IMG/VR virus record: IMGVR_UViG_3300047494_000061
Location: 5,801-69,800 of that record
Source: a virus
Strand: one strand, 5' to 3'
DNA: 64,000 nt
Shown: positions 2,187 to 37,454 of the stretch, one piece after another
How the letters are laid out: each line of letters starts with the position of its first letter
Position numbering within the stretch: the first letter of the stretch is position 1
The notes under the pieces: generated by a model
Told to the model about the DNA's origin: nothing
Database searches by the model: none
Seen by the model: only the letters and a program-made list of their open reading frames with translations
Position numbers and translations under genes: made by a program

Positions 2187-2198
2187 CGATCTACCCTC

Positions 2199-3812: not shown

Positions 3813-3820
3813 GTTCGCTC

Positions 3821-4387
3821 CTACTTCCCTGCGTAAGCTCCACCCACCGAGCCCCCAGCGCCGACCGCATCTCCGACAAGGGCCAATTCCGCTTTCTGCT
3901 CGGCGTCGTCCGCTTGCGTCATGGAAGACAGGTCGCTCGATTGCGCTCCCAAAGATGTTCCATAGATTCCCGCTTCGGAGTTCGCGCCTGCCTGCTCGTC
4001 CTGAAGCAGCTTGTCCTGTTGATTGAGCCAGGTGTTTTCGTTCTGCGTGTCGCGCGTGGCGTTGTAATTCGTGAGGTCGCGCTGGCCTTGGCGGGCGATG
4101 GAAGCCTCTTCGTTCGGGAGGGCTGCGGAGTTTGTTCCGGTTCGCGCGACTCCGCTTTCCAGCGCCTGTTTCGCGGCATCGTTTTCCGAATTCATCGCGC
4201 CGGACGTGGCTAGGTTCTGCTGGGTAAGGTAGGCTTTGGATTCAAAAGGATTTCCTGCGGCAAGAGCCGAGTTGACATTCGACATATACCCGGCTTCGTC
4301 GCCTTGGTACGCTCCAAGCGCGGCGGCGGCGTTGTCGTAGTTCTGCGTTGCTGCGGAGTGATCTATTCCAGGAGCGGGATTCGAGAT
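3821..4387 (-). CDS. putative small internal virion/ejection protein; start either ATC 4387 or ATG 4285
   Basis: Ala/Gln/Asn-rich helical protein with Gly-rich C-terminus; frame is open upstream to an ATC 5 nt after GGAGGT. Confidence 0.55.
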   Translation of the reverse strand: MSNPAPGIDHSAATQNYDNAAAALGAYQGDEAGYMSNVNSALAAGNPFESKAYLTQQNLATSGAMNSENDAAKQALESGVARTGTNSAALPNEEASIARQGQRDLTNYNATRDTQNENTWLNQQDKLLQDEQAGANSEAGIYGTSLGAQSSDLSSMTQADDAEQKAELALVGDAVGAGGSVGGAYAGK

Positions 4388-4406
4388 GTCACACCTCCGC
4401 GACGTA

Positions 4407-4421
4407 ACGCAGAGTAGCAGA
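4407..4421 (-). promoter_or_regulatory. putative late promoter (TCTGCTACTCTGCGT, extended -10 TGn-TACTCT), copy 1 of 5
   Basis: Identical 15-mer occurs in five intergenic gaps upstream of structural genes. Confidence 0.8.
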
Positions 4422-4429
4422 CACGAAGA

Positions 4430-4876
4430 CTACAACCAACGCCTCCAGCGCACCAGCCCGTCGTCCAAGGGCCAAAACTTTAACTTCCGAAAGACTTTCC
4501 ACATCCTGTCTTTCAGGGCGATAGGACACGTGGCGATCACGCAATCGAATCTGAGGTCTTTCAGCCATGCGCCAAGATCGCTTTCAAGCGCCGCCGACTC
4601 CTCAAAACCAGCCTCGGAGCAGCCCATCTTGATGACTTCCACTTGCGCCTCGACGAATAGGAGATCCACTACTTCTCCGCTGGAATCTTCGGCCACGAGC
4701 GCCAGCATGACAGGAAACTCGAAAAGGTTGGCTTTTCTCTGCCGCTGCTTCATGTACCGTTCGCTGACGAGGCGGATTCTCTCGATTGCTTCCCTGTCCG
4801 AAGGCTTGGCGATGCGCCAAGTAAGCTCTCCCGTTTTCTTCGAGTAGTCCCGCCAATAAGAAAGCCAGTCGGTCAT
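4430..4876 (-). CDS. GNAT-fold-like virion assembly protein (T7 gp13-like position)
   Basis: N-terminal WRIAKPSDREAIERI resembles the GNAT beta1-alpha1 start; located just before the ejection genes. Confidence 0.45.
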   Translation of the reverse strand: MTDWLSYWRDYSKKTGELTWRIAKPSDREAIERIRLVSERYMKQRQRKANLFEFPVMLALVAEDSSGEVVDLLFVEAQVEVIKMGCSEAGFEESAALESDLGAWLKDLRFDCVIATCPIALKDRMWKVFRKLKFWPLDDGLVRWRRWL

Positions 4877-5388
4877 GCCAGCACCACCACTCTCATTGAA
4901 TTTGCGGCCGGCGCGACTCCGAAGACGATGGTCACGGTATTCGCGCTGGTCATCTGAATTGTAACCGCCTGCACCGCGTATGGGCTGGTCAGGGAGTAGA
5001 CCTGCACGATTACGTCTTTCGTTCCAAGATTATGCGTGATGACATAGCTGGTCGCCGAACCATCCCCAAAAGTCTGCGAATATTTGGAGACGCCCGACCC
5101 GTGCGCCGCGATCATCTGATTCGGCCATGAGCCGCTGATAGAGACGTTCGACCCTTGAACCAGGCCGGGAGTAGCCGTGCCAGTCCCGCCGTGCTCCACC
5201 GCGACAGGAGTCACAAGTTTCAGATTCACGTTGGCTAAAGGAGCGGTAGGAGAGGAGTCCATTGATAGAGTGGCGTCTGTGGTGATGGACGCAATATTGC
5301 CGCCGGACCCCGCGAACGCGGCCGATCCTGCGCTGATCGCATAGTCGGCCACATTGGCGTGAGTCTTCGAGGACGCCGGACTGCTCAT
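4873..5388 (-). CDS. short tail-fibre-like protein (171 aa)
   Basis: Likely start ATG 5388 overlapping the upstream TGA; VEHGGTGTAT fibre repeat and C-terminal YVITHNLGTKDVIVQVY module typical of phage fibres. Confidence 0.6.
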   Translation of the reverse strand: MSSPASSKTHANVADYAISAGSAAFAGSGGNIASITTDATLSMDSSPTAPLANVNLKLVTPVAVEHGGTGTATPGLVQGSNVSISGSWPNQMIAAHGSGVSKYSQTFGDGSATSYVITHNLGTKDVIVQVYSLTSPYAVQAVTIQMTSANTVTIVFGVAPAANSMRVVVLA

Positions 5389-6914
5389 ATCCACGCCGCC
5401 AAAAGCCAGTTCACATTGCCGGTCCAGGTAAGCACGGAAGGGTTCGCGTAAAGCAAGGTGGGAACCAGACCTATCATGCCGCACTGCAGGATTCCGCTCA
5501 TGACGTGCGGTTCGGGAAGATCGTATTGCGCCGGAGTGCAGATCGAAAGCATATCGGTAGAGTTGAATCCTGCGGGAAGCGCTACCGGGGTTCCTGAAGC
5601 CACTTGACCCGCTCCAATAACAACCGCGTGTCCCCCTTGAAGCTGAATTCTCAAAAAAGGAAAGCCGCCCACCATCGTGACATCCGCGCCCTCTTCCCAC
5701 GCGATCGCCATCCAATTGGCGGTGGTTCCCCAGATGTTCGAGGCTGAGTCCTGATCCGAATACTCGGCCTGCATGGTCGTGCCGCTCAGTTGATTTTCCC
5801 AGTATCCGTGCGGGCCGTTGCCTGTGTCGACTGCGGCGGTGAGAGAGCAGATAGACATCATCCTGCTGGCGTTGAACCACGATACAGGAGGAGTATAGAT
5901 ATTCGCGCCGTCGACGTTGACCCCTTGCCCGAAGGCCACTCTCGCTCCCCCTGGCAGACGCATGACCGCCCATGTTCCGGTGGAGCTGGTGTGGAGGGTG
6001 ACGTTGGGATTTGTCGGATCGAAGGCGATTGCGAAAACGGAAGCGCTTCCAGATAGGGGAGCGGCGCCGGAGCGCTGACCATAGGTCATGCGGATTTCCA
6101 CTGGGTAATCCGGTATTCCCGCGACGGGAGACGACGGGGTTTGCAGGTCGACATCGCAGGCTGTGACCCCAAAAGTTTCCCCCAAAGTGTTGACCTGATA
6201 TCCGTTCGGTCCTGCGATCGCGACCATACCCGAGGAATATACCTGCGTGGCCAGTTCGAAGATTTCCTGGTCGACGACAAGCGCCGCTCCGATGCCCATC
6301 ACCAAAGACCCCGGAAGCGTGAATAGGGCCCACAGGGAATTGCCAGCGTTCTCCAGCGTGACCTGGTTGATGAGTCCGCCCAAAGCGGTGCCGCTATTTG
6401 CGTTTTTCCACTTGTTGAAATTGATTCCGTCGAAGCTGGAGCGGAATTGGAAGTACCATGTGCCGGAACCGAGTCCGGTGATTGTCCAATAGACCTGCGC
6501 CGAGCCCGTGTTTCCGCCAAAGACCTGGGTGTTGGAATTGACGTTGAACGCAGGACTCGTCGACGCTCGAATCTGGTGATAGATAGTCTGGACGGGCTGA
6601 AGAGGAGTTAGAGGACTGAAGTTTCCTTTCGCTTCCTGCGCCTGAAGCGTGCTGATCGGCGAAGACGCCCCTGGATTGACGAGCTGGACGATATAGTTCC
6701 CCGAGAGAAGACTGACCGATCCGGTCGCTTGGGCGGGAACGGGAGCCGCAGGATTCGGCTGCCCTGGCGTTGGTGAGGCAATAGGAGTCGTGCCGGTAGC
6801 CGCCTGCTGTTGCGTCGTGGTTTGCGCCATCGCCTGCAGGACTTCAAGCAGGCTGGCCGAGTCTCCCCGAGAGGCTGCGAGTATCTTTTGCTGCGAGATG
6901 GAGGGTCCTGCCAT
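5385..6914 (-). CDS. tail structural protein (509 aa, beta-rich, Fn3-like segment)
   Basis: TITGLGSGTWYFQFRS resembles an Fn3 motif; located in the tail gene cluster. Confidence 0.5.
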   Translation of the reverse strand: MAGPSISQQKILAASRGDSASLLEVLQAMAQTTTQQQAATGTTPIASPTPGQPNPAAPVPAQATGSVSLLSGNYIVQLVNPGASSPISTLQAQEAKGNFSPLTPLQPVQTIYHQIRASTSPAFNVNSNTQVFGGNTGSAQVYWTITGLGSGTWYFQFRSSFDGINFNKWKNANSGTALGGLINQVTLENAGNSLWALFTLPGSLVMGIGAALVVDQEIFELATQVYSSGMVAIAGPNGYQVNTLGETFGVTACDVDLQTPSSPVAGIPDYPVEIRMTYGQRSGAAPLSGSASVFAIAFDPTNPNVTLHTSSTGTWAVMRLPGGARVAFGQGVNVDGANIYTPPVSWFNASRMMSICSLTAAVDTGNGPHGYWENQLSGTTMQAEYSDQDSASNIWGTTANWMAIAWEEGADVTMVGGFPFLRIQLQGGHAVVIGAGQVASGTPVALPAGFNSTDMLSICTPAQYDLPEPHVMSGILQCGMIGLVPTLLYANPSVLTWTGNVNWLLAAWI

Positions 6915-7145: not shown

Positions 7146-9917
7146 TTACACCCCTCCGCCCGGCGTAGGCGCTCCCGGCCATTGCGGATAGACCATCAAA
7201 TCCGACTTGAAGACCTGCCACCAAGCGCCGGGAATGCCGCCGTTATCGATTCCTACCGCCCAACGCATTGAGTATATTCCTGCGTAGGGCATAGGAATGT
7301 CCTGCCTCGTCCTCTGTCCCGGCGTAAGGAAGAACGGGTTGAGCGGTCCCGTGAGAACGTAGGGATAGTCGTTGTCGTCGTAAGCGGTCACATTGCACAA
7401 GCCCTGCCCTGTGCACCACATGCGCGCGCCAGCCAGCTTGTTGTAGACCGTGGACGGGCTCTCTCCAAGGACGCCAACCCAGTTCGAGAAATACCCGACT
7501 TGGTTCCCGTCGTAGTCCTCGTCCCAATACTGGTTGTCGGTCATCGTCTTGATCGAGCCGTCTGCGGCAAAGAAGACCATCTCCGTCTCGACATCCAATC
7601 CCGCGACTTGAACCGCGTTCTTGCTTTTCTGCGGGATGTACACGGCGTCGTTGAACGTCAGAGGGTCTTGCGACCACTTGCGTCCTTCGACGTTGGGAAC
7701 CAGAATTCCCCTGCGCTGCACGAATACGACAGGATCGCCGGTGCCGAAATAGTAGTTGATGACGAACCTGGCGTTGATCGTCGTCGAGCCGTTGACCGGC
7801 GCGAGAATGTGAACCAGCCGGCGCTTATGGTCGATCCTCAGCTTGATGATCTGGCCGTAGTCCCAATTGATCGTCTCCCATGCCGCCTCCTGCTCGCGGC
7901 TTATCAGGGTGGGAGACTGGCCGGTGAACATATAGACCCCGCTGCGATGCACCCACATCGCAAACTCGGAATCGTCCTGCCCCGCAATATCGATCGCGCT
8001 CGCTCCGACAGGACCGTTGCCTCCCCAGACCTTTCTCGGAGTCCATGTGCTCGGATCGCCGCCGCTATTTTCCACGGCGTATCCAGAATTCTCCTTGAAG
8101 GAGTACCCAATTCCTCGAATCTCGCGGTAGCACACCGTCCTGTCGCCGTCGTTTTCCGAAACCTGAAAGTTACCTCCGGGGATGCGCACCATTTCGGGAG
8201 CCTGAATGTCCGAGAAGAGATGGCCGCTCTGATATCCCACCGCGCCTGTATAAACAACGCGCTGGAGAGTCTTGGCGAAATAGACGTCGACGCACGGCGG
8301 GATCTGCACAATATCGAAGTAGTCCGTCACATCGGTCGCGCCGGGAAGATATGTGTCCGTGAAATTGAACAGGGCGGTGGTCGTCACATTGTCTTCAACG
8401 ATGGTCGCGGTGATGGCGACGTTCGGCTGATTGAACCCAGGGGATTCGACATCGGCCTGCGATATGTAAGTGAAGGGTCCGGCCGCGCTCGCCCCGGACA
8501 CCGTTGAGGCGACAACCCTTGCCTGGCAGTTGTAGGGTCCTGTGGGAAGCCTCAAGCACTGGATGGGCCACCCGGACTGGGTGACGTTCACAGGAATCGC
8601 CGCGGAGTCGGAAAAGCCCGTCTGGTACACCGTCTGCGTCTGAAAGAAGACCGTCAAATAGCGAATCCCCGTATCGACGTTTCCAACGGTCGCAGTGGTC
8701 GCCGCGGTGGACGTTTGCGGCAACTGGCTTCCTGTCGGGAATGCGGAGATGGTCTGCGATGCTCCCGAGGCGAGCGGCACGGTGTTGACTTTGGCGTAGT
8801 AGGTCGCATCGACGATCTGGCTGGCATCCGCGCTTGAGTCGGAATCGATGAAGGCGTACAAGTTGACGCCAGTCGCGCCGTAAGCGGCTCCCAGAGTGCC
8901 GCCGGGCAGAAGGTAGGTAGGGATGGCCGCCATCTTCACCGTGAGGTCCACGGCGCTTGCGCTCGTGTTTTTCCACACAAGCACCTTTGTCGTGTCGAGC
9001 ACGCCTTGGGTGTTAGTCAGTTCGTTGGTGCCCTCGCCCACAGGATTGACCAGAGTGCAGCACAAGTAAACCGTGGCTCCCGGCAGGATAGGCGATCCCG
9101 CGTCAACCGTGGTCGTTGGATTCGTCGGAGCGAGCGCGTCTGGAAGGCCAGAGATGAAGATCGGGGTGCATTCTCTCCAGAGAACCGTGTTGTCGATAAC
9201 GTTGGCGTTATAGACTGTCGGCCATGCGGGTTGCGCTCCAGCGGCTCCGCTGACTCCCGACTGAATGCATTGATATAGGTATCCTGTCTGCTTGACCACC
9301 CACGAGCCTTGGCCGTCCGTCTGCCCAAACGTCTGGAAGGTGGAAGGAGAAACCACTTGTCCTGCGCGGTACTGTGTTCCAGGCGTCCACGCCGCGCCGA
9401 AAGGGATGTCGGAAGCGGGATACAGGACGCCGTTCGAAGAGTTGTAAACCAGCGGTCCCTGGCTCGTTGGAAGCAGGAGGTCGGCGAGGGTGATGAACAG
9501 GTTGTTGAACGCTTGGGCCATGACCGGATTCAGCCCCACGAAGGGTTGAAATCCGGTGTTTCCAAAGAACGCCGCGTTCGTCAGGTTGATCAGGCTCGCT
9601 TGAATGAATGGCGGGCACGAGTAGATATTTCCATCGACCGACCCGTAAGCGAAAAGCAGGATGGTCTCGACAGCCTGCAGATTGAGGGTTCCGGGTTGCG
9701 CGGCCAGATAGCGAAGCAGGCCGCCGCCTGTCAGAGAGTTGTTCAGCGAGACTTGAATCCGGGTGGAGTGGCCGAATCTTGTCGCCGTCGACTGGGCGGT
9801 ATACCGCTGATTCTGCGCAATGCGGGCAAGTCCGAGCGGGAGAAGAACCGAGTCGTCCCATTGGCAGGACGACCCGTATCTTGGGATGGAGATCGGCTTA
9901 GCGCCTTCGAAATTCAT
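7146..9917 (-). CDS. tail nozzle / DNA stabilisation protein (P22 gp10 / T7 gp12-like, beta-propeller)
   Basis: 923 aa beta-rich; C-terminal half shows propeller-like WVHRSGVYMFTGQSPTLIS; downstream of the adaptor. Confidence 0.6.
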   Translation of the reverse strand: MNFEGAKPISIPRYGSSCQWDDSVLLPLGLARIAQNQRYTAQSTATRFGHSTRIQVSLNNSLTGGGLLRYLAAQPGTLNLQAVETILLFAYGSVDGNIYSCPPFIQASLINLTNAAFFGNTGFQPFVGLNPVMAQAFNNLFITLADLLLPTSQGPLVYNSSNGVLYPASDIPFGAAWTPGTQYRAGQVVSPSTFQTFGQTDGQGSWVVKQTGYLYQCIQSGVSGAAGAQPAWPTVYNANVIDNTVLWRECTPIFISGLPDALAPTNPTTTVDAGSPILPGATVYLCCTLVNPVGEGTNELTNTQGVLDTTKVLVWKNTSASAVDLTVKMAAIPTYLLPGGTLGAAYGATGVNLYAFIDSDSSADASQIVDATYYAKVNTVPLASGASQTISAFPTGSQLPQTSTAATTATVGNVDTGIRYLTVFFQTQTVYQTGFSDSAAIPVNVTQSGWPIQCLRLPTGPYNCQARVVASTVSGASAAGPFTYISQADVESPGFNQPNVAITATIVEDNVTTTALFNFTDTYLPGATDVTDYFDIVQIPPCVDVYFAKTLQRVVYTGAVGYQSGHLFSDIQAPEMVRIPGGNFQVSENDGDRTVCYREIRGIGYSFKENSGYAVENSGGDPSTWTPRKVWGGNGPVGASAIDIAGQDDSEFAMWVHRSGVYMFTGQSPTLISREQEAAWETINWDYGQIIKLRIDHKRRLVHILAPVNGSTTINARFVINYYFGTGDPVVFVQRRGILVPNVEGRKWSQDPLTFNDAVYIPQKSKNAVQVAGLDVETEMVFFAADGSIKTMTDNQYWDEDYDGNQVGYFSNWVGVLGESPSTVYNKLAGARMWCTGQGLCNVTAYDDNDYPYVLTGPLNPFFLTPGQRTRQDIPMPYAGIYSMRWAVGIDNGGIPGAWWQVFKSDLMVYPQWPGAPTPGGGV

Positions 9918-9941
9918 CGCCGTCGATCCCCCGCAGGACTG

Positions 9942-10334
9942 TTAGCAGCTTCCCTTGGGACCGCGAAAGCGCAGAACGAAAGCGTTTGGAGTCAGAAGAC
10001 CGGCAGGATACGCGCCATTGGCCAGTTCGAGTCCTGTCGTCAACACCGTGACTCTCAGCCCCCAGAGGTTCGGATTGGCGCTTCCCGCAGCCGGAGGGAC
10101 AAGCGTCCCGAGATAGCCCTGCGGCGATTGAAGCACTTCGCCGTTGCTGATCTTTGCAGGGAATCCAATGGCGTCGGAGAGGTTTTTGCCGACCGGAATT
10201 GCGATGTTGTAGAGGTTGACCACATCCCCGGTAGTCCCGTTGTTCACGTAGTTTCCGGAGCACTGGGCGGAGACTTCTACGGTCTTGTCGCGGATATCGT
10301 GAATCGCTGCTGTTGCGGTGAGAGCTACGGACAT
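9942..10334 (-). CDS. small virion structural protein (130 aa)
   Basis: ATG with GGGAG RBS directly after a late-promoter copy; beta-rich. Confidence 0.5.
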   Translation of the reverse strand: MSVALTATAAIHDIRDKTVEVSAQCSGNYVNNGTTGDVVNLYNIAIPVGKNLSDAIGFPAKISNGEVLQSPQGYLGTLVPPAAGSANPNLWGLRVTVLTTGLELANGAYPAGLLTPNAFVLRFRGPKGSC

Positions 10335-10354
10335 TGATCTTCTCCCAATTCGTT

Positions 10355-10369
10355 ACGCAGAGTAGCAGA
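10355..10369 (-). promoter_or_regulatory. putative late promoter, copy 2
   Basis: ACGCAGAGTAGCAGA on + strand, intergenic. Confidence 0.8.
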
Positions 10370-10377
10370 TTCGATTC

Positions 10378-11088
10378 CTAGAAGTACGGGGTGCCACCGG
10401 CCGTAAGCGTCACGCCAGTTCCACGCTTTGTTCCACGTGGAAACTTGTTCTCGGCCTGGGACTGCATCACGATCAGGTTGGTGAAGTTTTGCTTGTTGCG
10501 CGCAAGGTTCTTTTCGAGCCTCGGCCCCAACTTCCCCATGCCGCCGTTCAGGTCGGCCACAAAGCAAGCCACCTGAAGCGCCAACAGGCTGCCAATTCCC
10601 CGCATGACCTGGCCAGCGCTGTCGTAGACCGTCTGCGTCAAAGCGAAGAAGTAGACCCTCAGAGTCACTGCCGCGCCCCAGCTCGGCGTGGTCTGGATCG
10701 CTCCTCCCGCCCACCGGTATTGCTGGCAGCCGATATTGCCCTGCTGCACGTCGTCGAGTTCGTTGACGTTTTGGGATTGGACGTAGGCCGTGTCCGGCTG
10801 GCCCTGAATCTTCCAATCAATTCTCTTCGGGCGCATGAGGTACTGAAGAGGCTGCCCCGGCGCGAAATAGGGAGTCAAGTCGTTCGGCGCGGCGGTCGAG
10901 ACAGGAATATTAAAAATCGCGATAGCCTCTTCCTGCTGCACTCCTAGTCTTTCGAGCATGATCTGGAGTTCTTCGTTCTCTTGATCCACGTAGGGGCGGA
11001 GATAGTCGGCGGAGAAGCGTATGCCGGAGGGATCGTCCAGCAGCGCCTGCGCCCGCGTAATCACCGCGCCTACGGTCATTATCGACAC
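10378..11088 (-). CDS. head-tail adaptor protein
   Basis: MTVGAVITRAQALLDD...LRPYVDQ N-terminal helical pattern typical of podovirus adaptors; precedes the nozzle gene. Confidence 0.6.
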   Translation of the reverse strand: MSIMTVGAVITRAQALLDDPSGIRFSADYLRPYVDQENEELQIMLERLGVQQEEAIAIFNIPVSTAAPNDLTPYFAPGQPLQYLMRPKRIDWKIQGQPDTAYVQSQNVNELDDVQQGNIGCQQYRWAGGAIQTTPSWGAAVTLRVYFFALTQTVYDSAGQVMRGIGSLLALQVACFVADLNGGMGKLGPRLEKNLARNKQNFTNLIVMQSQAENKFPRGTKRGTGVTLTAGGTPYF

Positions 11089-11104
11089 GAATCAACTCCT
11101 CTTC

Positions 11105-12226
11105 TTACAGATTTTTCTTGCCGCCGACCGCATCGGCGATCGCCCGCGCCTGGTCCGCATTCCTGCGCTCAAGCTGCTCGTCGTCGTTCTCCATCATGCG
11201 AAGCACGGCGATGCTCTTGGGCTTCATTCCGCCCAGCTTGAGGCGTTCTTTCTTCTCTTCGATGGTCTCGGCGACGTAATCGGAGATGCCCATGTCCTTG
11301 ACGACATCCCGCGTCAAACGTTCGAGCGAAGGATCGCTCTCCGAGATCGCGCCAATCTCGTAAGCCTTGCGCGGATTGATGATATAGCCGCAGTTCGGAG
11401 TCGTGCATGTGCTCGCGCCGAACGTCGAGCGGGCCTGGCAGCTTGGACAAACCGGCACGGTCTGCTTCAAGTCCACAGTCTTCTGCACCCATTTGGGCAG
11501 TTCCTTGATGACTCCAAGCCAATGCAGCCGGCGCGCGGATGCCTTTTGGGTGTTCGTGGTCGGCTTGTCCATGCGGTCGAGATCGTCTCCGGCCTCGACA
11601 TGGCGCATCATCCACTCGACGGCGGCGACTCGGGTAGCCTCGAAAACCTCGCCGTAAGTCCTGCCGTGGTGTTGCTCCTCGGTGCTTTTCCGCGCTCGCC
11701 ACTTAGGGTCCTCGATATCGGCAGGAACGCCGAGAAACGACATTACGCCTTTGTCGTTGGAGTCGCTGAGAGATTTGGCGAGAACGATCGGATGCTGGTC
11801 GATGGGGATGAGAGGGCTGTCGATGCCGACGCGGGTGGGTTCAAAGAAGCATTCGTCGAAGTAGCAGGTTGTGTAGTTCTCGCCGTCTTTTGGAGGGGCC
11901 AGCATGAAGCCTGGGTAGCGAAGCGGATCGAGAGTCGCGTCGGAGACGAGCGGGATAGGAAGAAAGTTGACGACTGTCGCCGTGGTCACGCCGTAGGCTC
12001 GAATGCGGCCCTTGGTTGATGCCAAGTTGCGCTCGTACTGCTTATCGACCCGGCGCCCTAGAGCCTCGTGGTTGATCGCGCCAATCTCTCGAGAATTGTC
12101 TCCAAAGGTCACGCGCTCGACGGCGGTTGTCGTAATGCCTTTATCCCGCACATAGGTCGTGCGTTCTGCCGCGACCGCAGGCGGCGTGCTTTCGAGCGTC
12201 AATCCATACTCCGCTACTTCTGCCAT
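11105..12226 (-). CDS. hypothetical protein with zinc ribbon (CPSC...CTTPNC)
   Basis: 373 aa ORF with GGAGG RBS; Cys cluster near the C-terminus. Confidence 0.6.
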   Translation of the reverse strand: MAEVAEYGLTLESTPPAVAAERTTYVRDKGITTTAVERVTFGDNSREIGAINHEALGRRVDKQYERNLASTKGRIRAYGVTTATVVNFLPIPLVSDATLDPLRYPGFMLAPPKDGENYTTCYFDECFFEPTRVGIDSPLIPIDQHPIVLAKSLSDSNDKGVMSFLGVPADIEDPKWRARKSTEEQHHGRTYGEVFEATRVAAVEWMMRHVEAGDDLDRMDKPTTNTQKASARRLHWLGVIKELPKWVQKTVDLKQTVPVCPSCQARSTFGASTCTTPNCGYIINPRKAYEIGAISESDPSLERLTRDVVKDMGISDYVAETIEEKKERLKLGGMKPKSIAVLRMMENDDEQLERRNADQARAIADAVGGKKNL

Positions 12227-12263
12227 CTCTTTCCTCCAACGTCACAGGACTTTGTAGTTCTTC

Positions 12264-12989
12264 TTAGTTGCCATAATTGCTGAAAATACCTGCCTTCTCT
12301 GCTGCAATCTGGCGCGCTCGGCCGCCATCGAGGAAGGTAGAAAACAGAGGAGACATTGCAACCATATTGGCAGCCGACGCTTCCCGGTTCCACTTTTCAG
12401 AGGCTTGCGCGTCTTCCTGTTCAGCTTCATACGTTCTCATTCTGACATACGCCCCCGCTTCCATCGCCAGAGTCTCGTCCCGCATGAGTTCCCACTGCTC
12501 CACGAGACGATCCAAGAAGGGTCCTGTCGGAGCCTCTGGATAGGGACCTCCGATCAGAATGTACTCGCCCTTGAATGGATACGGCCCTAGCTTTGGAATG
12601 GAAGTTCCTGGCACGACTCTCTGCTCCCATTCAACCGGCGAACCGAAATAGGCGGGTGCCATCCAACGTTCGAAGATCCAGCCGGGAGCGTGGAACAGAA
12701 TGGGGTATTTCGGAACTTGGCGCATTTCGACAACTTGGCGCTCGGCGCGGCAATTAGGAGTCACGCCTTTGCCTGTCTGGTCGGCCACCAGCGAACCTCT
12801 GAGCGCTGTGGGAAGGTTCTTGTCCCAATCGCTCCATTCGCCTCCCGAGAGGGCTGTGACGTACTGGGAATGAACGATGCGATAGAACTGGAATCCCATG
12901 AATCCGCAGCCGTGGCGTTGGCTGAGGTATTGATTTGTGTCCTGCGGTTCTGGCCCGCTGTAGCCGTCGTTCTCTCGGTGATCTCGCAT
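12264..12989 (-). CDS. hypothetical protein in head/neck cluster (241 aa)
   Basis: ATG with AGGAG RBS; tight packing with neighbours. Confidence 0.6.
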   Translation of the reverse strand: MRDHRENDGYSGPEPQDTNQYLSQRHGCGFMGFQFYRIVHSQYVTALSGGEWSDWDKNLPTALRGSLVADQTGKGVTPNCRAERQVVEMRQVPKYPILFHAPGWIFERWMAPAYFGSPVEWEQRVVPGTSIPKLGPYPFKGEYILIGGPYPEAPTGPFLDRLVEQWELMRDETLAMEAGAYVRMRTYEAEQEDAQASEKWNREASAANMVAMSPLFSTFLDGGRARQIAAEKAGIFSNYGN

Positions 12990-13005
12990 GTGCTCCTAAT
13001 GCAGA

Positions 13006-13036
13006 AAAACGCCGGACCCAGGTTCGAGTCCGGCGC
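13006..13036 (-). terminator. rho-independent terminator
   Basis: Minus strand CGCCGGACTC-GAACCT-GGGTCCGGCG followed by TTTTT, just after the stop at 13052. Confidence 0.7.
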
Positions 13037-13051
13037 ATTTCCCTATTTGCC

Positions 13052-13834
13052 CTAGTTGAGAATGTTGTAGTTGTAGACCGCCGTATTGCCGGTGCCGCAA
13101 GTGGCGCTGAAACTCGTGCCAGGGGTGCTTGCGGTGATGTACGGATTCCCGACGGCCGCCGTGCCCGACTTCCAACTGATGACTACATCGGAAGTTGCCA
13201 AGTAGAGCGCGTTTGCGACCACGATGGTGCCACCAGAGGTGCAAGTGAATGTGCCTTTTCGTGAACCGCTGTTCAGCACTACGCCGCCGCTAGTGGCCGC
13301 CGTGGGCAAAGTACCAGCATTCCCCGATGCGATCGGCAGGGTCTGGGTAAGCACGTTCGACCCGGAAGGAGTCGGAAACCAGTTCGCTTCCCCGTTGCTC
13401 GTCGCTCCAACCCACACCTGATAGTAGGAAGCGTAAGGCACGGGAGTGCAGGTCCATGTGATGCTTCCTGCAGCCGTGGTCGTCACCAGAGCCGACTCGG
13501 TACTCGGCAGGGCAATGCCGCCGTACCAGTCGACCGCGACGCATTTGGCGTAGTTCGCGCCAGCCGCGACGGTGCCGGTCGTGTAAGATGGAGCGCCGGT
13601 GACGGCGGCGGCAGGACCAGGAGTCATGCCTACTTGAAGGCTGTCCAAAAATCCTAGGCCGCCGATGAAGACGTTCTTCGCGAAGTAGGAATTGTTTGAC
13701 CCGTCCTGCCCGCCTACTTGGTAGATCGACGGGGAGTTCTGGAATCCGGGATTGATCTGCTGTGGAGTTTGAGCGACCGCACCAACCGTTGCCAGTGCGA
13801 GCACCGATGCGAAGAGTGATTTCATTACTTTCAT
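13052..13834 (-). CDS. putative capsid decoration protein with Sec signal peptide
   Basis: Immediately after MCP; begins MKVMKSLFASVLALATVGAVA|QTPQ; Thr/Gly-rich beta domains with 4 Cys. Confidence 0.55.
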   Translation of the reverse strand: MKVMKSLFASVLALATVGAVAQTPQQINPGFQNSPSIYQVGGQDGSNNSYFAKNVFIGGLGFLDSLQVGMTPGPAAAVTGAPSYTTGTVAAGANYAKCVAVDWYGGIALPSTESALVTTTAAGSITWTCTPVPYASYYQVWVGATSNGEANWFPTPSGSNVLTQTLPIASGNAGTLPTAATSGGVVLNSGSRKGTFTCTSGGTIVVANALYLATSDVVISWKSGTAAVGNPYITASTPGTSFSATCGTGNTAVYNYNILN

Positions 13835-13875
13835 TTCCGTTTCCTCTCTTGGCTTCACGTCTCTTAGCGTTCTTA

Positions 13876-13897
13876 AGGGCGACTCGAAAGCCGCCCC
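13876..13897 (-). terminator. hairpin / partial terminator after major capsid gene
   Basis: GGGCGGC-TTTCGA-GTCGCCC stem-loop with a weak U tract. Confidence 0.5.
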
Positions 13898-13910
13898 TAA
13901 GTGGTTGGTT

Positions 13911-15185
13911 TTAGTAGCCGGTCGGCTCAGGCAGGCCCGAGATGTACGACTGGGATTTGAGATTGACCACGTAATACTGAACAGTGTCGATCATAAAGCT
14001 CGACATTACGCTGGTCGGCTGTCCGTTGGTGCCGATCTGCCGGAAGATGGTCCTGCCCTGGTCGTTCAACCAGAACGGCGCATCGCCCCAGCGAATCTTT
14101 TCCCAAGTCTCCAGATTCAGGAAGTCCACGCGAGAGATATTGCCGTGGATGTTCTTGACGAAGATATTGCCAGCCACCTTCATATCGCCAGTGGTCAACA
14201 GGTCGAAGCCGGTGCCCACGGTGCCATCGTTCTTCCAGAAGTTCGTCAGCGACAGGCCCGACTGTTCGTATTGAGCTTGCTGGCCGGGGGCCATGTGCAT
14301 CTTGAACTTGCCAGCCTTGACCGCATCCTCGCCGATGGAGTGGATGATCTGATCCAGCCCCAGACGGAAGAGCGGAGGAGTCAGCGACGATCCCGCCGCC
14401 GCCACGCCGTTCGACAGGATGAAGTTGTTGGCCGCCTGAGTCCTGTCAATGCCGATGGTCATGCCGACCGGGGAATTGTTGTTCCAGTAGGGCAGGCCAT
14501 AGACGAACTGGGGAGCGCCGGAGACGAGGTTGTTGAACCGCAGAACGGTTCCGCCGGCATAAGCGTTGTCAACAGTGAGGATCTGGGTCGCGCCGATTGT
14601 CTTCTGCACCGCAGTGACGTTCGAAGTTCCCACATACGCCAAGCCGTTGTAGACGTCGATGTTGTTGCCCTTGTCGAACAGGCGCGCGCCGAAATCAGCC
14701 GAAGACAGGGTATAGGTTCCCCCAGCGCCCGCAGTCGTTGCGGTGATGGTTCCCCAGTATCCTGTGCCGTCGCCGCAGCAAAGGCTTTCATCGCGGGTCA
14801 GTTTTAGTTGCTCGGTCGCGCCGCGCATGGTCTTGTCGACCACGTTGGCGACGGCCAGCATCGAACTGGTAGTGGTGATATCCGCCAACTCGGTCCAGCC
14901 GACAGGAACGGCCCAGGAGACGGGCTGCATGACGCCGTACTGCCAATCGGGAGAACCCGGAGCCGGGTAGTTTGCCGCCGCGTCCAGCGCGATCGCCGAC
15001 CGGATGCCGGGGATTGCGTCTTGGAACGTGACGCGGTACGAATGCTCGGAAACTTTGGTAGCCTTGCCGCTGGAGGAAATGAGCGCGTCCAGCTTGGAGT
15101 CCTTTTCAACCAGCAGTTGCGGCTGGTTCCAGACGCCTTCGAGCATGACCGCCGCCGCACCAACACTTGCCTGGAGAGCTGCCAT
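13911..15185 (-). CDS. major capsid protein (HK97 fold, about 424 aa)
   Basis: Start MAALQASVG after GAAAGGA RBS; follows portal and scaffold; RDESLCCGDGTG and TIGIDRT resemble conserved MCP motifs (..GDGTG.., GI.R). Confidence 0.75.
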   Translation of the reverse strand: MAALQASVGAAAVMLEGVWNQPQLLVEKDSKLDALISSSGKATKVSEHSYRVTFQDAIPGIRSAIALDAAANYPAPGSPDWQYGVMQPVSWAVPVGWTELADITTTSSMLAVANVVDKTMRGATEQLKLTRDESLCCGDGTGYWGTITATTAGAGGTYTLSSADFGARLFDKGNNIDVYNGLAYVGTSNVTAVQKTIGATQILTVDNAYAGGTVLRFNNLVSGAPQFVYGLPYWNNNSPVGMTIGIDRTQAANNFILSNGVAAAGSSLTPPLFRLGLDQIIHSIGEDAVKAGKFKMHMAPGQQAQYEQSGLSLTNFWKNDGTVGTGFDLLTTGDMKVAGNIFVKNIHGNISRVDFLNLETWEKIRWGDAPFWLNDQGRTIFRQIGTNGQPTSVMSSFMIDTVQYYVVNLKSQSYISGLPEPTGY

Positions 15186-15243
15186 CGGGATAGTCCTTTC
15201 TCTGTGTATTGCTGCTCGGTTGCTGGAACGCGATGCGATGTCT

Positions 15244-16725
15244 TTAAGCGGCAAGACCCTTGAGTTTGGGATTCTGAAGCATCATGTGTACCGTGATGTC
15301 CGAACCCTTCGGCTCTCTCCCCGGATTCGCCGCTCTCCAAGAAGCTTCGGCCGCGGCATATTCCTGTTGCGGACTTAGACTTCCGGTAGTGCGTGCTCCC
15401 GGCTGGAGGGATGCACCGCCATTGACTTCGCTGCGAGCGTTTTCCGCTCGTGCGGCCTGTGCTGCTTGACGTGACTCGACCTTGCCCTTGACCGCAACGC
15501 CAGCTTCCCGAAGGATGGGCCGGGCGATTCGCGGAAGATTATCGCGGGTGAATTGCTTGGCCAGCGCTTCTTCTTCTGCGAGACGCGCGGGACTCGCGGG
15601 CTTCATGCGAATCTGCGCTCTGCGGCTTTGATACGCGGCGTTGTTTTTGATCGCGGCCTTGAAATCGGTCTCGATCTGTTTTTCCACCGCGCTGCGGGTA
15701 AATTTATCCAGCCCGGTCGCCAGTCCCAGCAGGCTTCCGACCTCGGTCTCGTACAGCGATTGGAGCTTGCCGTTGAGAGTGGAGGTGTATTCCTTTTGGG
15801 CTGCCTGGGTGGAGGTTTCGCGTTCGGCCTTTAATCTGGCTTCCTGCGCGTCGAGTTCGGCTTTGCGAGCCGCAAGAGCGGGATCGCTGTCGGTGGTCTT
15901 ATCCGCTGTGGAGGGCAGCAGTCCTACACTCTCCATGACCAGATCCAGCGCCGCTTTTACGTTCTCATCGCCTTTTGCTGCTAGTTCTTCCACTTTGCGA
16001 ACCACGTTCAGCGCAAGCCAGCGCTTTCCGACGGTCTGCAAAAACTTGCTTGCGGTCCCATCGGTGAGGATGGTTCCCTTTTCGTCCCGGCGAATCTCGC
16101 CGTTCTCGTCCCGCAAAGCCGATCCTTCGATCAGCTTGTTGATGAAGGACGTAGTTCCCTTTTCAACGTCCTGCGAGACCTGGCTAAAGGCTTCCGAGAA
16201 TCCCGCGTACGTTTGCGCCGTCTCGACCGCAATTTCCGCTTCGGCGGGAGACGCGAAGTATTTTTCATAGGCGGCGCCGCGTTCGGCAAGACGCGCATTC
16301 GCCAGAATCTCGTTGCGGGTGTCTTGATCCAAAGCGGCCTTGAGAGCCGGGTTTGCTTCGATTTTGGCGGCAAGGTCTTTCGCTCCAACGAAACCGTCTT
16401 CGTCGAGCGAGTAGCCGGGTTCGTCTTCCTGCGCGGCGGGAGTCGCTTCCGTAGTGGCAGCAGGCTCCGCTTTGGCAGGCTCGGCAACCGTAGGCTCGGC
16501 CGCAGGAGTCGATGGAGTCGCGGGAGCGGCGCTTAGATCGTCGTTGAAGCCTTTGGACTTGGCGGCTTCGACCATCGCATTGACAGACTGGTCGTGCGAG
16601 AGAGCGCCGGTATTCGGGGTCGCGACAGGACTCGGCGTGGCTGCCGGAGAAGGGGTTGCGGCTGGCGCTGCCGCAGGTGCGGCGGCGGCGGGGGCGGAAG
16701 ACGGAATTGTTGCGCTGGTTGCCAT
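15244..16725 (-). CDS. capsid scaffolding protein
   Basis: Pro/Ala-rich disordered N-terminus plus long coiled coils; between portal and MCP. Confidence 0.65.
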   Translation of the reverse strand: MATSATIPSSAPAAAAPAAAPAATPSPAATPSPVATPNTGALSHDQSVNAMVEAAKSKGFNDDLSAAPATPSTPAAEPTVAEPAKAEPAATTEATPAAQEDEPGYSLDEDGFVGAKDLAAKIEANPALKAALDQDTRNEILANARLAERGAAYEKYFASPAEAEIAVETAQTYAGFSEAFSQVSQDVEKGTTSFINKLIEGSALRDENGEIRRDEKGTILTDGTASKFLQTVGKRWLALNVVRKVEELAAKGDENVKAALDLVMESVGLLPSTADKTTDSDPALAARKAELDAQEARLKAERETSTQAAQKEYTSTLNGKLQSLYETEVGSLLGLATGLDKFTRSAVEKQIETDFKAAIKNNAAYQSRRAQIRMKPASPARLAEEEALAKQFTRDNLPRIARPILREAGVAVKGKVESRQAAQAARAENARSEVNGGASLQPGARTTGSLSPQQEYAAAEASWRAANPGREPKGSDITVHMMLQNPKLKGLAA

Positions 16726-16729
16726 CGAC

Positions 16730-16744
16730 ACGCAGAGTAGCAGA
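16730..16744 (-). promoter_or_regulatory. putative late promoter, copy 3 (near-leaderless scaffold mRNA)
   Basis: Same 15-mer; the -10 hexamer is 8 nt from ATG 16725 and there is no RBS. Confidence 0.75.
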
Positions 16745-16752
16745 TCGCACTT

Positions 16753-19164
16753 TTAGGGCGAGGGAGGTTGCCCACCTTTAGTGTTTGCCGCCGCCTGCGC
16801 CGCCTGCATCTGTTCGGCGGCCTGCTCTTTGGCCATCTGAGCGGAAATAGCGAGAAAGGCGAGAACGTTTCCGTATCCTGTCGGATTCGATTCCGCTTGC
16901 TCCCAGTTTCGCTGCAGCCATTTCTTCGCGAGAATCGTGCAGACCTGGGGGTCGTCGATGCGGAAGTCGGGCATGATCGACGGGATCACGATCAGCTTCG
17001 GGGAGTTCGGGTCTTGCGGATTCAGTGCCGGGTTCGGCTTCGATATCGGTCCGTTCGGGTCTTGCGACAGCCGATGCAGGATCGTTTTAATTTTCGCTCT
17101 CTCAGGCTCGGTCGAGAGCTCCATCCCTTTCGGCAGGACATAATGGGCCACCTCGTTGGCGATATCGGGATCGCTGAGCATTTGGGTTATGAAGGGAAGC
17201 TTCTGGTTTTCTGCCAGCAATTGCTGAACTCGCGCCTGTTCTTCCGTGTAGGTTGCCGGGAATCCTTCGGTATCTTCCGGGTAAGTGAAGAAGTTCCCGC
17301 CAAGTTCCGACTTCAACATCCGAACCGTATTCCAGCCGTCGCCGGAGTCGTTCTCTTCGACGATCTTGATCTCCTCGTCCATGTTGTCCACCGAGCACAT
17401 GACCGAGAGTTTGGCTCTTTGCGCTTTCTCGGAGCGCATCTGGTTCAAGTATTGCTTCAGCCTTCCCAGCGCCGTGTTGAGCGCCTGTTCCTGCCCTTCG
17501 GCCGTCTGGACGTTCTTGTCCGACCCGCCAAATACTTGCGGCATAACTCCCACGAGGAACTGGGCTCGGGTGGTGAGCGTGTCGGGATACTTGTAAATCT
17601 CCGAATCGATCTGGAAGGTCATTTGATGGAACAACTGATCCAGCGGGACTCGCTGCCCGGTCTCTTCGTCAGTCCTGCTGACTCCGGTCAAGTTCCCTGG
17701 AGTCAGAACCTTGTTCTGCATCGCGTTGCCGTCGATGTAGTCGGCGTCGTAAAGCATCGTCCCGTAGGCGACGCGATCCATGTAGGCGTCGATCTTGTTG
17801 ACCGCCCCGGTGACTCGCTCTTGCACGTCCAGGCAAGGCTTTCCAACCGCAGGAGGATAAGCGCCGGCGCCCTTGAACGTCCCGCACCATGTCCAATGCT
17901 TGCGGCAATCCTCGTTCTTCGCGTCAAGGAAGGTTTCGTCGTTCGTTAGAACCAGCTTGCATCCTTCGGGATAGCGGCTGGCGAGCTCTTGGGCGAGTTC
18001 CTGATCTTCTAGTTCGTTGAAGGTCTCGGCTTTAATCCAGCAACGGGAATAGCTGACATTTCCTTCAAGAATGATGGGGCGATTGTTCGATCCTGGAGTA
18101 GTTTGTCCCGCGCGACCCGTGGCCGCCATGTCTCCGCCCGAAGCCGTGTCCGTTCCGCGCCCTGGCGTGATTTCGGAATATCTTTCAGGGTAAGCCGACC
18201 TGATCTTTGAAGCGGCTATTTCGATCGTGTAGTCGAGGATTTCGGTCTCTGCGATCGGATCGCGAATGCAGTCTGGGTTGATATCGACCATCAAGCCGTT
18301 CACGACATCGTAGGCCGTCATGCCGTTGGCGACTTCTACTTGTCCTGTCACCTGCGGCAAGTCGAGAGTTTGGCCTTCATACCAGTCCTTTTGGGCAAGA
18401 GGTTGGCCGCACTTGGCGCAATTCGGATCGTCTCCGAACGGGCTGGAGTTTTGATCGCCAGGGTTGGCGGTTCCGCAGTTCGAGCAAAGATAAGAGTCCG
18501 GCGAGACCTTCGCGGAGACTATGCCGATCTGATCCTGCTTCGAGGTTCCAGCGCGATCCTTGTCGATCACATACCGGACATAGGTGAAGTAGCATCCAGT
18601 CAACCAAAGATAGAGAAGTTCCAGCTGCTGAAGAGACAGGACATCGTTCATCCGGTCGTTGTAGCCGGAGATCGTCGTGCCTTTTTTTGCGATCTGGATG
18701 TCGTCTTCGTCCTGCGCGTCCACCGGCTGCCAAATGATGCCGCCCATATCGACCATCAGCGCCGCGATAAAGATCATGGCGAACGCTTGGTAGATGTTGT
18801 CGTTGTGGGCGTATAGCTGGGGATCGTCGCCCTGGCCCAAGAATCCCTGCATGAGCTGGTTGATCGTGTCGAGCGCCGCGGACTGGTCGTTCAGCAGGGC
18901 ATAGGTGTTTCCACGCAGAGCTTCGATGGAGCGCATCGCCTCCGACACGAATCTCATGCGCTTGGGCTGGTAGCGCGTCTTGAATGTCCTGCGGAGTTCG
19001 ATCAGCGCGGCCTTGCACCGTTCGTCGAGTTGATCTGCGGCTAGTTTCTGCTCTGCAGTCTGGGGAGAATCGGTGGTCGCGTCGTCGCCGGAGGATTGCG
19101 GCGCTGTCGAGTTTGCATCTTGAGCGCTTAGCGCTGCCATAAGGGCCGGGGCCATCGTTGCCAT
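16753..19164 (-). CDS. portal protein (P22-like, 803 aa) with zinc-ribbon insertion
   Basis: Size and position before scaffold/MCP; motifs NIYQAFAMIF, PVDAQDEDDIQIA, LVGVMPQVFG; Gln/Ala-rich C-terminal helix. Confidence 0.75.
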   Translation of the reverse strand: MATMAPALMAALSAQDANSTAPQSSGDDATTDSPQTAEQKLAADQLDERCKAALIELRRTFKTRYQPKRMRFVSEAMRSIEALRGNTYALLNDQSAALDTINQLMQGFLGQGDDPQLYAHNDNIYQAFAMIFIAALMVDMGGIIWQPVDAQDEDDIQIAKKGTTISGYNDRMNDVLSLQQLELLYLWLTGCYFTYVRYVIDKDRAGTSKQDQIGIVSAKVSPDSYLCSNCGTANPGDQNSSPFGDDPNCAKCGQPLAQKDWYEGQTLDLPQVTGQVEVANGMTAYDVVNGLMVDINPDCIRDPIAETEILDYTIEIAASKIRSAYPERYSEITPGRGTDTASGGDMAATGRAGQTTPGSNNRPIILEGNVSYSRCWIKAETFNELEDQELAQELASRYPEGCKLVLTNDETFLDAKNEDCRKHWTWCGTFKGAGAYPPAVGKPCLDVQERVTGAVNKIDAYMDRVAYGTMLYDADYIDGNAMQNKVLTPGNLTGVSRTDEETGQRVPLDQLFHQMTFQIDSEIYKYPDTLTTRAQFLVGVMPQVFGGSDKNVQTAEGQEQALNTALGRLKQYLNQMRSEKAQRAKLSVMCSVDNMDEEIKIVEENDSGDGWNTVRMLKSELGGNFFTYPEDTEGFPATYTEEQARVQQLLAENQKLPFITQMLSDPDIANEVAHYVLPKGMELSTEPERAKIKTILHRLSQDPNGPISKPNPALNPQDPNSPKLIVIPSIMPDFRIDDPQVCTILAKKWLQRNWEQAESNPTGYGNVLAFLAISAQMAKEQAAEQMQAAQAAANTKGGQPPSP

Positions 19165-19167
19165 GAT

Positions 19168-19662
19168 CTATTTCCCCTCCGCAGCGTCGATCATGCGTTG
19201 AACGTGCGCCGGAACGTAGTCCGGCCGCGATGCTCCCGATTCCGGAATCGTGCCGACCGAGGCTTCTTCGAGAGTCCTGCGGGACTTTTGATATTTGTCG
19301 CGAACGATGTTTGCTTTGATACGCGCCACGGTTTGAGCGAGAACATAGGGATTCGCCGGTCCTCCAAGCTCTTTTGCCGCCGCTTTGGCTAGATCCTCGG
19401 GATTGTTTTCGTCGAGGCTCGCCCAGTCGACTTGATCGTCTTCTTTCTTCGGAAGATCTATCGGCTTGCGTCGGCGGGAAGCGACTATCGCAGGAGACAT
19501 GACGGCAAAATCATCAGGTAGCTGAACAGTCACCTTGACAGGCACCGGTTGAGCGATTCGCGCCTCCAAGGCGGCGATCGTCTCCTGCTGCCAACGAATC
19601 TGCGCGTTCTTGGCGCTGACGACATCTTCGTGATGCTCGCGCCCAATCCAAGGCCAACGCAC
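19168..19662 (-). CDS. hypothetical protein (164 aa)
   Basis: GTG start, packed upstream of the portal. Confidence 0.55.
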   Translation of the reverse strand: MRWPWIGREHHEDVVSAKNAQIRWQQETIAALEARIAQPVPVKVTVQLPDDFAVMSPAIVASRRRKPIDLPKKEDDQVDWASLDENNPEDLAKAAAKELGGPANPYVLAQTVARIKANIVRDKYQKSRRTLEEASVGTIPESGASRPDYVPAHVQRMIDAAEGK

Positions 19663-19663
19663 G

Positions 19664-19999
19664 TTAGTTCGTCTCCGATACCCTAACGGCTGTGGCCGCT
19701 CCCATAGACTTCACCTGGCAATAGACCGTGGCAGGGCAATTGGCCGCCGACAGTCCGTTCCATCCCGCAGGAGACCCCACAAGCGGTCCTACGCCGTTCG
19801 GCACGATATTGCCGATGATGATGGGCTGCTGCGTGGGAGGGTATTCGTCGGTGTTGCCGTTGGGCCACAGTACGATGAGTCCCGCGGCTGCGCCAGTGCC
19901 GTCTTCCTGAATGGCGACGCCGCGCGCGAACGTCTTGGCGGTGAGAGCGACGAATGCCGCGCCTGTGACTGCGATTGGCGCTTGAACCTGAATGCCCAT
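19664..19999 (-). CDS. small beta-rich hypothetical, possibly virion protein (111 aa)
   Basis: ATG 19999 with GGAGGG RBS (MGIQVQAPIAV...). Confidence 0.55.
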   Translation of the reverse strand: MGIQVQAPIAVTGAAFVALTAKTFARGVAIQEDGTGAAAGLIVLWPNGNTDEYPPTQQPIIIGNIVPNGVGPLVGSPAGWNGLSAANCPATVYCQVKSMGAATAVRVSETN

Positions 20000-20003
20000 C
20001 GTT

Positions 20004-37426: not shown

Positions 37427-37454
37427 ACAGGACTCGGAGGAATCTGGGTCCTGT
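37427..37454 (+). other. intergenic stem-loop
   Basis: ACAGGACTCGGA-GGAA-TCTGGGTCCTGT, with a GNRA loop. Confidence 0.5.

Follow-up and report, generated by a model that had tools for sequence, protein, structure and literature searches.

The DNA analysed here, which we call the window, is a stretch of 64,000 nucleotides comprising bases 5801-69800 of a 69.8-kb IMG/VR virus record (IMGVR_UViG_3300047494_000061) from an uncultured phage, rated complete by CheckV. On its minus strand, the gene for a probable major capsid protein (MCP) is followed by a gene whose 260-aa product carries a predicted signal peptide; we refer to the position behind the MCP gene as the slot, and to this gene and its product as the slot gene and the slot protein. 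Our tentative reading, to which we give slightly less than an even chance, is that the slot protein is an exported, disulfide-bonded, glycan-binding adhesin that joins the surface of the virion, most likely at the head. The features at the locus are as follows.

16753-19164, minus strand: portal-sized gene (803 aa), upstream of the slot gene
15244-16731, minus strand: Ala/Pro-rich scaffold-like gene (495 aa), between the portal-sized and probable MCP genes
13911-15185, minus strand: probable MCP gene, 424 aa from an internal ATG; the open reading frame (ORF) is open from TTG 15254
13872-13901, minus strand: GC-rich hairpin of 13 bp without a U-run, 3' of the probable MCP stop; -24.7 kcal/mol, z -2.6
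13052-13834, minus strand: slot gene, 260 codons
13772-13834, minus strand: signal peptide, residues 1-21, predicted signal peptidase I site AVA↓Q; heuristic call, kept in 17/17 family members
13583-13771, minus strand: N-terminal mature region, residues 22-84, with the motif VGGQDGSNNSY; predicted local distance difference test (pLDDT) 26-61, low confidence
13280-13582, minus strand: immunoglobulin (Ig)/fibronectin type III (FN3)-like beta-sandwich, residues ~85-185, with the Cys98-Cys129 pair; pLDDT 88-98
13055-13279, minus strand: C-terminal lectin-like beta-sandwich, residues 186-260, with the Cys198-Cys246 pair; variable, pLDDT 54-72
13000-13036 (stem-to-tail site 13009-13036), minus strand: intrinsic terminator, 12-bp stem with 8 GC pairs, then TTTTTCTG, 3' of the slot gene

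The slot gene starts at ATG 13834, with the Shine-Dalgarno (SD)-like sequence GAGAGG at 13843-13848 on the minus strand, 8 nt upstream. SD-like motifs precede 26 of the 35 window genes, a frequency that argues against a typical Bacteroidota host. An alternative start at GTG 13858 would add 8 residues to the protein. After residue 1 there is no in-frame Met before M69, and residues 22-68, which lie between the signal and M69, are conserved as protein. Judged from its sequence, the slot gene uses its own start and its own ribosome-binding site.

Export signal and paired cysteines

The slot protein begins with MKVMKSLFASVLALATVGAVA, followed by QTPQ. Lysines occupy the n-region, a 15-residue uncharged hydrophobic core follows, and A-x-A precedes the Gln, the whole being laid out as MK.MK, then SLFASVLALATVGAV, then A-V-A↓Q. 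There is no lipobox Cys (the residue at +1 is Gln) and no twin arginine, which corresponds to neither a lipoprotein nor a Tat pattern. A signal ending in A/S/G-x-A↓Q, with Gln at +1, is present in all 17 slot-family proteins, at identities down to ~25%, and the more distant members keep its features and not its sequence; a search for a leaderless slot protein among the 17 produced none. The Gln at +1 is reminiscent of the Q-rule that passages of PMC5837995 give for Bacteroidetes. Each of the 17 also has an even number of Cys residues (2, 4, 6 or 8), those of the slot protein lying at positions 98, 129, 198, and 246. Among 71 relatives of the domain that carries the first pair, both Cys98 and Cys129 are present in 8, neither in 62, and one without the other in 1, a co-variation that would fit a disulfide restricted to exported slot proteins.

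The signal features are more than chance, and the case that the slot protein is exported, and that its export is under selection, looks strong. The initial annotation had listed the signal and two Cys pairs and had proposed export from them; both features are present, and the proposal is well supported by the conserved signal, the Gln at +1, the even Cys counts, and the co-varying first pair. Together, the conserved export signal and the paired cysteines suggest that the protein probably folds outside the cytoplasm, the compartment where phage particles are built.

The hydrophobic N-terminus could instead be an artefact of start-codon choice, or an internal segment of an MCP fusion of the SU10 gp9-gp10 type, in which case the protein would not be exported. 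In the window the slot frame does run on without a stop codon into the MCP gene, covering the last 77 nt of its 3' part (13914-13990, -1 frame), and passages of PMC4281155 describe an Ig-like ORF fused to the MCP by ribosomal slippage in SU10 and phiEco32. A frameshift fusion of this kind was considered as a general mechanism and rejected, given that the frame offsets over nine loci are 0 (three loci), 1 (four), and 2 (two), and that in five of the nine the slot frame and the MCP gene do not overlap at all. Inspection of the window's overlap sequence by eye found no slippery heptamer, and the 77-nt open frame, which is not conserved in relatives, is probably due to chance. An artefact of the start is also hard to reconcile with the lack of an in-frame Met from residue 1 to M69 over a stretch conserved as protein, and with a signal whose features outlast its sequence in distant family members. 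We regard a non-exported slot protein as very improbable, and return below to the exported adhesin.

Domain architecture and module exchange

An AlphaFold2 (AF2) model computed from a 54-sequence alignment (mean pLDDT 72.5) contains two independent sandwich domains. Alignment and model together divide the slot protein into four parts, namely the signal, an N-terminal stretch, a middle sandwich, and a C-terminal sandwich; the mature protein is 239 aa long. Slot proteins come in at least two architectures, to which only the signal and the N-terminal motif are common: GG.D..GN.Y (VGGxDxxGNxY) recurs in slot proteins that are otherwise unrelated in their middle and end. A loosely similar motif, GAQDAYGNIY, occurs at residues 26-35 of P0008, a leaderless protein of 318 aa with the same Ig/FN3-like domain as the slot protein.

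A profile search against 1.84 billion representatives returned 341 proteins with the Ig/FN3-like domain, just six of which cover the full length of the slot protein. When 50 of the 150 best matches were scanned with Pfam, six carried Peptidase_S74, three carried Gp34_trimer (the trimerisation domain of T4 gp34), one each carried a beta-helix, GH5, CBM5/12, and DUF2793, and 39 were without a family. By structure, the domain matches the crAss001 muzzle protein (7qok_A; Foldseek E 8.5e-4; VIA Z 8.0, root-mean-square deviation (rmsd) 3.0, 107 aligned) and the SPO1 capsid chain 9vel_C (VIA Z 8.0); the fold searches also returned Ig-like accessory domains of many phage structural proteins, which are generic Ig-like matches. 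The middle domain is a module common in phage tail fibres. The slot protein has, by Pfam, no S74, gp34 trimerisation, or beta-helix part of its own.

Residues 193-245 match the Pfam family K1-lyase_C (PF24146) at 18.2 bits (E 0.0035), which does not reach the gathering threshold of 27 bits. The orthologue P0002 has a precomputed PF24146 match, and a BFVD search likewise gave a K1-lyase_C domain match for the slot protein. The modelled C-terminal domain (residues 189-260) superposes on the K64-1 depolymerase S2-4 (9k4a_A 802-888; VIA Z 7.8, rmsd 2.4, 70 aligned), on the Pam1 tailspike 7eea_A and the K1 lyase 7w1c_A (VIA Z 6.6, rmsd 2.5, 66-67 aligned), and on LKA1 gp49 (4ru4; VIA Z 5.8), with lectins matched as well, where a VIA Z under 8 may mean a common fold only. 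As modelled, the domain thus resembles the C-termini of tailspikes and depolymerases and lectins, membership of the window protein in PF24146 not being established.

Sequence searches of Pfam, PHROG, and the PDB with the slot protein returned no known decoration family. None of 12 slot-family members matched a family in PHROGs, a PDB profile search with the slot family gave just a chance match to gp120 (E 0.67), and the Atlas features score of the slot protein (at most 0.80) is uninformative. The initial annotation had placed the gene in a slot usual for decoration or cement proteins; no link in fold or sequence to a known decoration or cement protein was found, and its domains are of the tail-fibre and tailspike type. 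The high copy number, the binding to the capsid, and the addition after membrane disruption that the annotation proposed are conjectural.

Close relatives of the slot protein are few (10 in 5.8 billion clusters), and two of its relatives differ from it in opposite ways: P0002 is 92% identical over residues 1-190 and 56% over residues 191-260, whereas the values for P0003 are 72% and 93%. These mosaic identities point to exchange of the C-terminal module, in a pattern that is typical of host-recognition modules. The C-terminus of P0002 in turn shares 80% identity with the final 71 residues of a signal-bearing, fibre-like protein (489 aa), whose gene lies among the tail genes of a related phage (L002). 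Because of this exchange the slot gene is not evolutionarily independent of fibre-like genes, and the earlier argument that it lends independent support to export, being separated from the fibre operon, holds only in part.

Domains of this kind could also belong to an exported accessory tail fibre or tail-bound adhesin, whose N-terminal motif would dock on a tail component and not on the capsid. Some proteins with Peptidase_S74 or the trimerisation domain of T4 gp34 contain the central domain too, the C-terminal one belongs to the tailspike type, and the genome encodes other signal-bearing fibre-like proteins with conserved N-termini and variable C-termini; moreover, the five genes downstream of the slot gene that are conserved in relatives (241, 373, 236, 130, and 923 aa) are probably neck and tail genes. 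The mature slot protein is nevertheless short, at 239 aa, and is modelled as two independent sandwiches and not as an intertwined trimer. Its slot is fixed beside the MCP gene, while the other signal-bearing cassettes lie in tail-gene hot spots, and the phage already has a leaderless candidate fibre (a 509-aa family with variable C-terminal extensions). We consider attachment to the tail unlikely, and prefer the adhesin on the head.

The capsid-gene neighbourhood and the slot in related loci

The initial annotation placed the slot gene directly after the MCP gene. It does adjoin the 424-aa gene; that this gene encodes the MCP is probable and not proven, and the assignment draws on PHROG matches of its homologues, an Atlas lead, gene order, conservation, and the hairpin downstream. 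The 424-aa protein itself gave no direct sequence match in Pfam (E up to 10), PHROG, or the PDB (phmmer and profile searches), and no match by tblastn against phages; Pfam found nothing in 35 of its homologues, and the portal-sized protein has no PDB match. Its 45 homologues (47-95% identity) include none named by function, 44 being hypothetical or unnamed and one a hypothetical protein of a metagenome-assembled genome (MAG). Five of the 35 homologues match phrog_14242, 'major head protein', weakly (best E 2.9e-4), and four match a 'virion structural protein' PHROG family. An Atlas features search points to viral clusters (0.98-0.99), one of which has SU10_MCP on 24% of its members, and sets the start of the protein at residue 24. 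The protein ranks with the best conserved of the clade: its identity to four complete relatives is 72-74%, similar to that of the 923-aa protein (69-76%).

The hairpin at 13872-13901 is matched in folding by 2 of 200 shuffles and is likely a read-through or RNA-stabilising element. The terminator at 13009-13036 (-29.1 kcal/mol, z -4.5) is equalled by none of 200 shuffles, and is the strongest of 12 terminator-like sites in positions 9000-20000, where 12.4 are expected, that is, without excess. Both structures had been described before, as a leaky-looking hairpin and a strong terminator on either side of the gene, and that description fits. In relatives, a hairpin follows the probable MCP gene in 15 of the 15 loci examined. 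It carries a T-run, by eye, in six of six loci with an empty slot, and mostly lacks one, again by eye, in loci with a filled slot, where a second strong hairpin with a T-rich tail lies 3' of the slot gene in six of nine cases. This pattern across empty and filled loci places the slot gene inside the MCP transcription unit. No sigma-70-like promoter was found in 9000-20000, where 2.9 are expected; the promoter type of the host may differ from sigma-70. As for the features of a moron, the gene is inserted between core genes and is followed by a terminator, and a sigma-70-like promoter of its own was not found in the same interval.

The hairpins behind the MCP gene and behind the slot gene in loci L005, L035, L047, L010, and L007 share a stem of the GGCAGGACTC...GAGTCCTGCC type, two copies of which lie in the window (13009-13036 and 37428-37453). 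The slot gene of L005 has near-repeats of a single hairpin on both sides, a hint that a cassette may have been inserted via recombination at terminators.

The content of the slot was compared over 31 loci that include the 3' end of the MCP gene, the window among them; some of these repeat the same contig or protein, and about 25 are distinct.

15 of 31 loci: signal- and motif-bearing gene directly after the MCP gene
2 of 31 loci: signal- and motif-bearing gene behind an inserted zinc-finger gene and a 376-aa ORF
2 of 31 loci: zinc-finger/HNH-like gene alone (one locus cut)
12 of 31 loci: slot empty

The empty loci include all four distant relatives (~50% MCP identity), and a target-profile search of the whole records of four relatives (three 99-100% complete, one 94%) gave no match, and hence no slot-type gene elsewhere in them. 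Since the slot gene is absent from 12 of the 31 loci, it is accessory and not an essential cement. Synteny in relatives, which had been suggested as a check, is thus seen in the 15 loci with the gene directly after the MCP gene and not in the 12 with an empty slot. The slot of L033 (1411-2088), L043 (1201-1860), L046 (392-1054), and L050 (3937-4614) encodes a zinc-finger protein that is rich in Cys, is ~220 aa long, and may be a homing endonuclease; in L050 a 376-aa ORF lies 3' of the zinc-finger gene. The post-MCP slot is a general insertion hot spot.

An accessory gene in such a site may encode a protein that is exported and never enters the virion, a late and abundant periplasmic or envelope protein that acts on glycans or receptors of the host surface. 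It could mask receptors on lysing cells and debris and so spare progeny, or it could act in superinfection exclusion; in this it would resemble the exported Llp of T5 or Cor. An export signal with disulfide-type cysteines suits such a protein, known exported phage proteins being non-virion, as does its dispensability in 12 of 31 loci. The same holds for the hypervariable C-terminal module, exchanged with a fibre-like protein as if to match the receptor specificity of the phage itself, and for a hot spot that also takes zinc-finger/HNH-like genes. What fits less well is the N-terminal motif common to otherwise unrelated slot proteins, which suggests a conserved partner, although the partner could be a host protein. 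The gene also has a fixed place in the MCP transcription unit and no promoter-like site in 9000-20000, unlike a free-standing moron, and no integrase was found among 50 ORFs scanned. We take a non-virion role as a serious possibility, short of an even chance, and continue to prefer the virion-bound adhesin.

Four further ORFs on the minus strand carry a signal: 22873-24237 (454 aa), 24599-30355 (~1918 aa), 30355-32433 (692 aa), and 33851-34261 (136 aa), three of the four with Gln at +1; a 118-aa ORF at 24234-24590 has a hydrophobic N-terminus. In the 692-aa family just the first ~160 residues are conserved in relatives (52-56%), always behind a signal and in a distant relative too; a leaderless version of this family was looked for and not seen, the one distant homologue found also carrying a signal. 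A leaderless protein of 509 aa (5385-6914, minus strand) has homologues of 581-664 aa, 70-155 aa longer, in all four relatives G001-G004, the extra sequence being C-terminal in G001-G003, and a 130-aa protein (9942-10334, minus strand) has homologues between 255 and 462 aa long. Either protein could be a variable surface part made in the cytoplasm. The proposal that the signal-bearing proteins are the sole proteins resembling receptor-binding proteins was rejected, the leaderless 509-aa family having variable C-terminal extensions as well; given this candidate fibre, export cannot be claimed for every receptor-binding protein of the phage.

A single open frame continues past either end of the record (window 3-2186 and 60382-64000, both minus strand, and L003 1-5898, record bases 1-5900). 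If the genome is circularly permuted, the end pieces join as one ORF of ~3,870 aa, a length that matches the virion RNA polymerase of N4-like phages; Pfam found no match in the two window pieces. A replication and accessory block at 38344-59105 of the window encodes a PD-(D/E)XK nuclease, an SMC/AAA ATPase, an HNH endonuclease, a crAss001_48-related protein, DUF1376, a DnaB helicase, C5 and N6/N4 DNA methylases, a GroEL-type chaperonin (579 aa), a PAPS-reductase-domain protein, and a Mom-family protein.

A possible assembly route and known systems

The sequence features of the slot protein, their conservation, its domain folds, the module exchange, and its place in the transcription unit are observations, and they allow the following course of events to be proposed. 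The slot gene would be expressed late on the MCP transcript, by read-through of the hairpin that lacks a U-run. Sec would carry the precursor across the membrane, signal peptidase I would cleave it at AVA↓Q, and in the periplasm each of the two beta-sandwich domains would be locked by one disulfide. Lysis would then mix the compartments, and the N-terminal motif VGGxDxxGNxY could dock the protein on a conserved site of the virion. From the position of the gene, this site would most likely be on the head, in the manner of Hoc, pb10, and N4 gp17, with the swappable lectin-like C-terminal domain pointing outward. That the protein is in fact exported, forms disulfides, and binds glycans, as well as each stage of its attachment to the virion, we infer from these observations. 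Attachment to the capsid is plausible by analogy, given the position, the architecture, and the precedents.

Several points weigh against this proposal. The presence of the slot protein in virions is a prediction, and its domains point to tail fibres at least as much as to heads. No sequence or fold match to capsid-binding domains was found for the slot protein, whose N-terminal region is modelled with low confidence. The assignment of the 424-aa gene as the MCP gene stands on weak matches and context, and hhalign detected no similarity between its product and the SU10 MCP (Prob 0.1). The signal peptides were called by crude hydrophobicity and the -3/-1 rule, a heuristic and not SignalP. Searches did not identify the host, whose periplasm is presumed: the genome_contigs set, used for host inference, contained no MCP relatives, and a domain-profile search for the host returned just two MAG fragments, one from Planctomycetales and one from Acidimicrobiia. 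Finally, the decoration-protein review PMC7602432 contains no mention of signal peptides, periplasm, or secretion, and a full-text literature search did not find a Sec-exported virion part of a tailed phage.

In the textbook view the assembly of tailed phages is purely cytoplasmic. It is possible, though on balance doubtful, that this clade of ~70-kb tailed phages exports its outer, host-contacting virion proteins (the head-linked adhesin and the large fibre-like proteins) via Sec; these would gain disulfides, and perhaps pyroglutamate, in the periplasm and would be fitted at lysis onto particles built in the cytoplasm. Such a two-compartment route is not known from Caudoviricetes. If slot-type proteins are parts of the virion, some particles would be finished only at or after lysis, oxidative folding would belong to virion maturation, and host range could hinge on the export and Dsb machinery of the host. 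If they are not, phages place copies of their receptor-binding modules within the envelope of the host, a behaviour that has likewise received little attention. In both cases, late genes annotated as 'hypothetical' that bear a signal should not be dismissed, and the slot family offers a compact test object of 239 aa.

Among known systems, the Ig-like decorations Hoc, pb10, and N4 gp17 are portrayed in sections of PMC7602432 as dispensable, monomeric, carbohydrate-binding adhesins, possibly derived from tailspikes. Like T4 Hoc, T5 pb10, and N4 gp17, the slot protein is small and accessory, and combines an Ig-like sandwich with a separate N-terminal part, which is a candidate anchor. Unlike them, since they have no signal and are assembled in the cytoplasm, it has a conserved Sec signal and paired cysteines, and it shows no sequence match or specific fold match to any of the three.

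The gene order resembles that of the kuravirus SU10 (KM044272), in which portal, scaffold, MCP, and an Ig-like gene are likewise followed by a terminator. The initial annotation's view of the slot therefore has a precedent as far as an Ig-like gene behind the MCP gene is concerned; its statement that the slot usually holds decoration proteins is too strong, as cryo-EM did not show SU10 gp10 on the capsid according to passages of PMC9509320. SU10 gp10 (132 aa) differs from the slot protein in having no signal peptide, and the slot gene differs in that it has a start and a ribosome-binding site of its own and that its frame relation to the MCP gene is not conserved, the MCPs themselves being without detectable similarity. 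The tailspikes and depolymerases that share the C-terminal fold (7w1c, 9k4a, 7eea, 4ru4) have a beta-helix catalytic body, which the slot protein lacks.

The gene for phi29 gp8.5 adjoins the MCP gene. Parts of PMC7602432 present gp8.5 as a fibre that is bound to the capsid by an N-terminal base, is dispensable, and probably helps in contacting the cell wall with its distal part. Unlike the slot protein, gp8.5 lacks a signal peptide and forms a trimeric coiled-coil fibre, and no homology between the two was found. Phage proteins that are exported without joining the virion include T5 Llp, Cor, and the signal-peptide and SAR endolysins, with which the slot protein shares its predicted use of the host Sec pathway. 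Those proteins are lipoproteins or enzymes with other folds, whereas the slot protein is composed of modules of the fibre and decoration type and is encoded within the MCP transcription unit.

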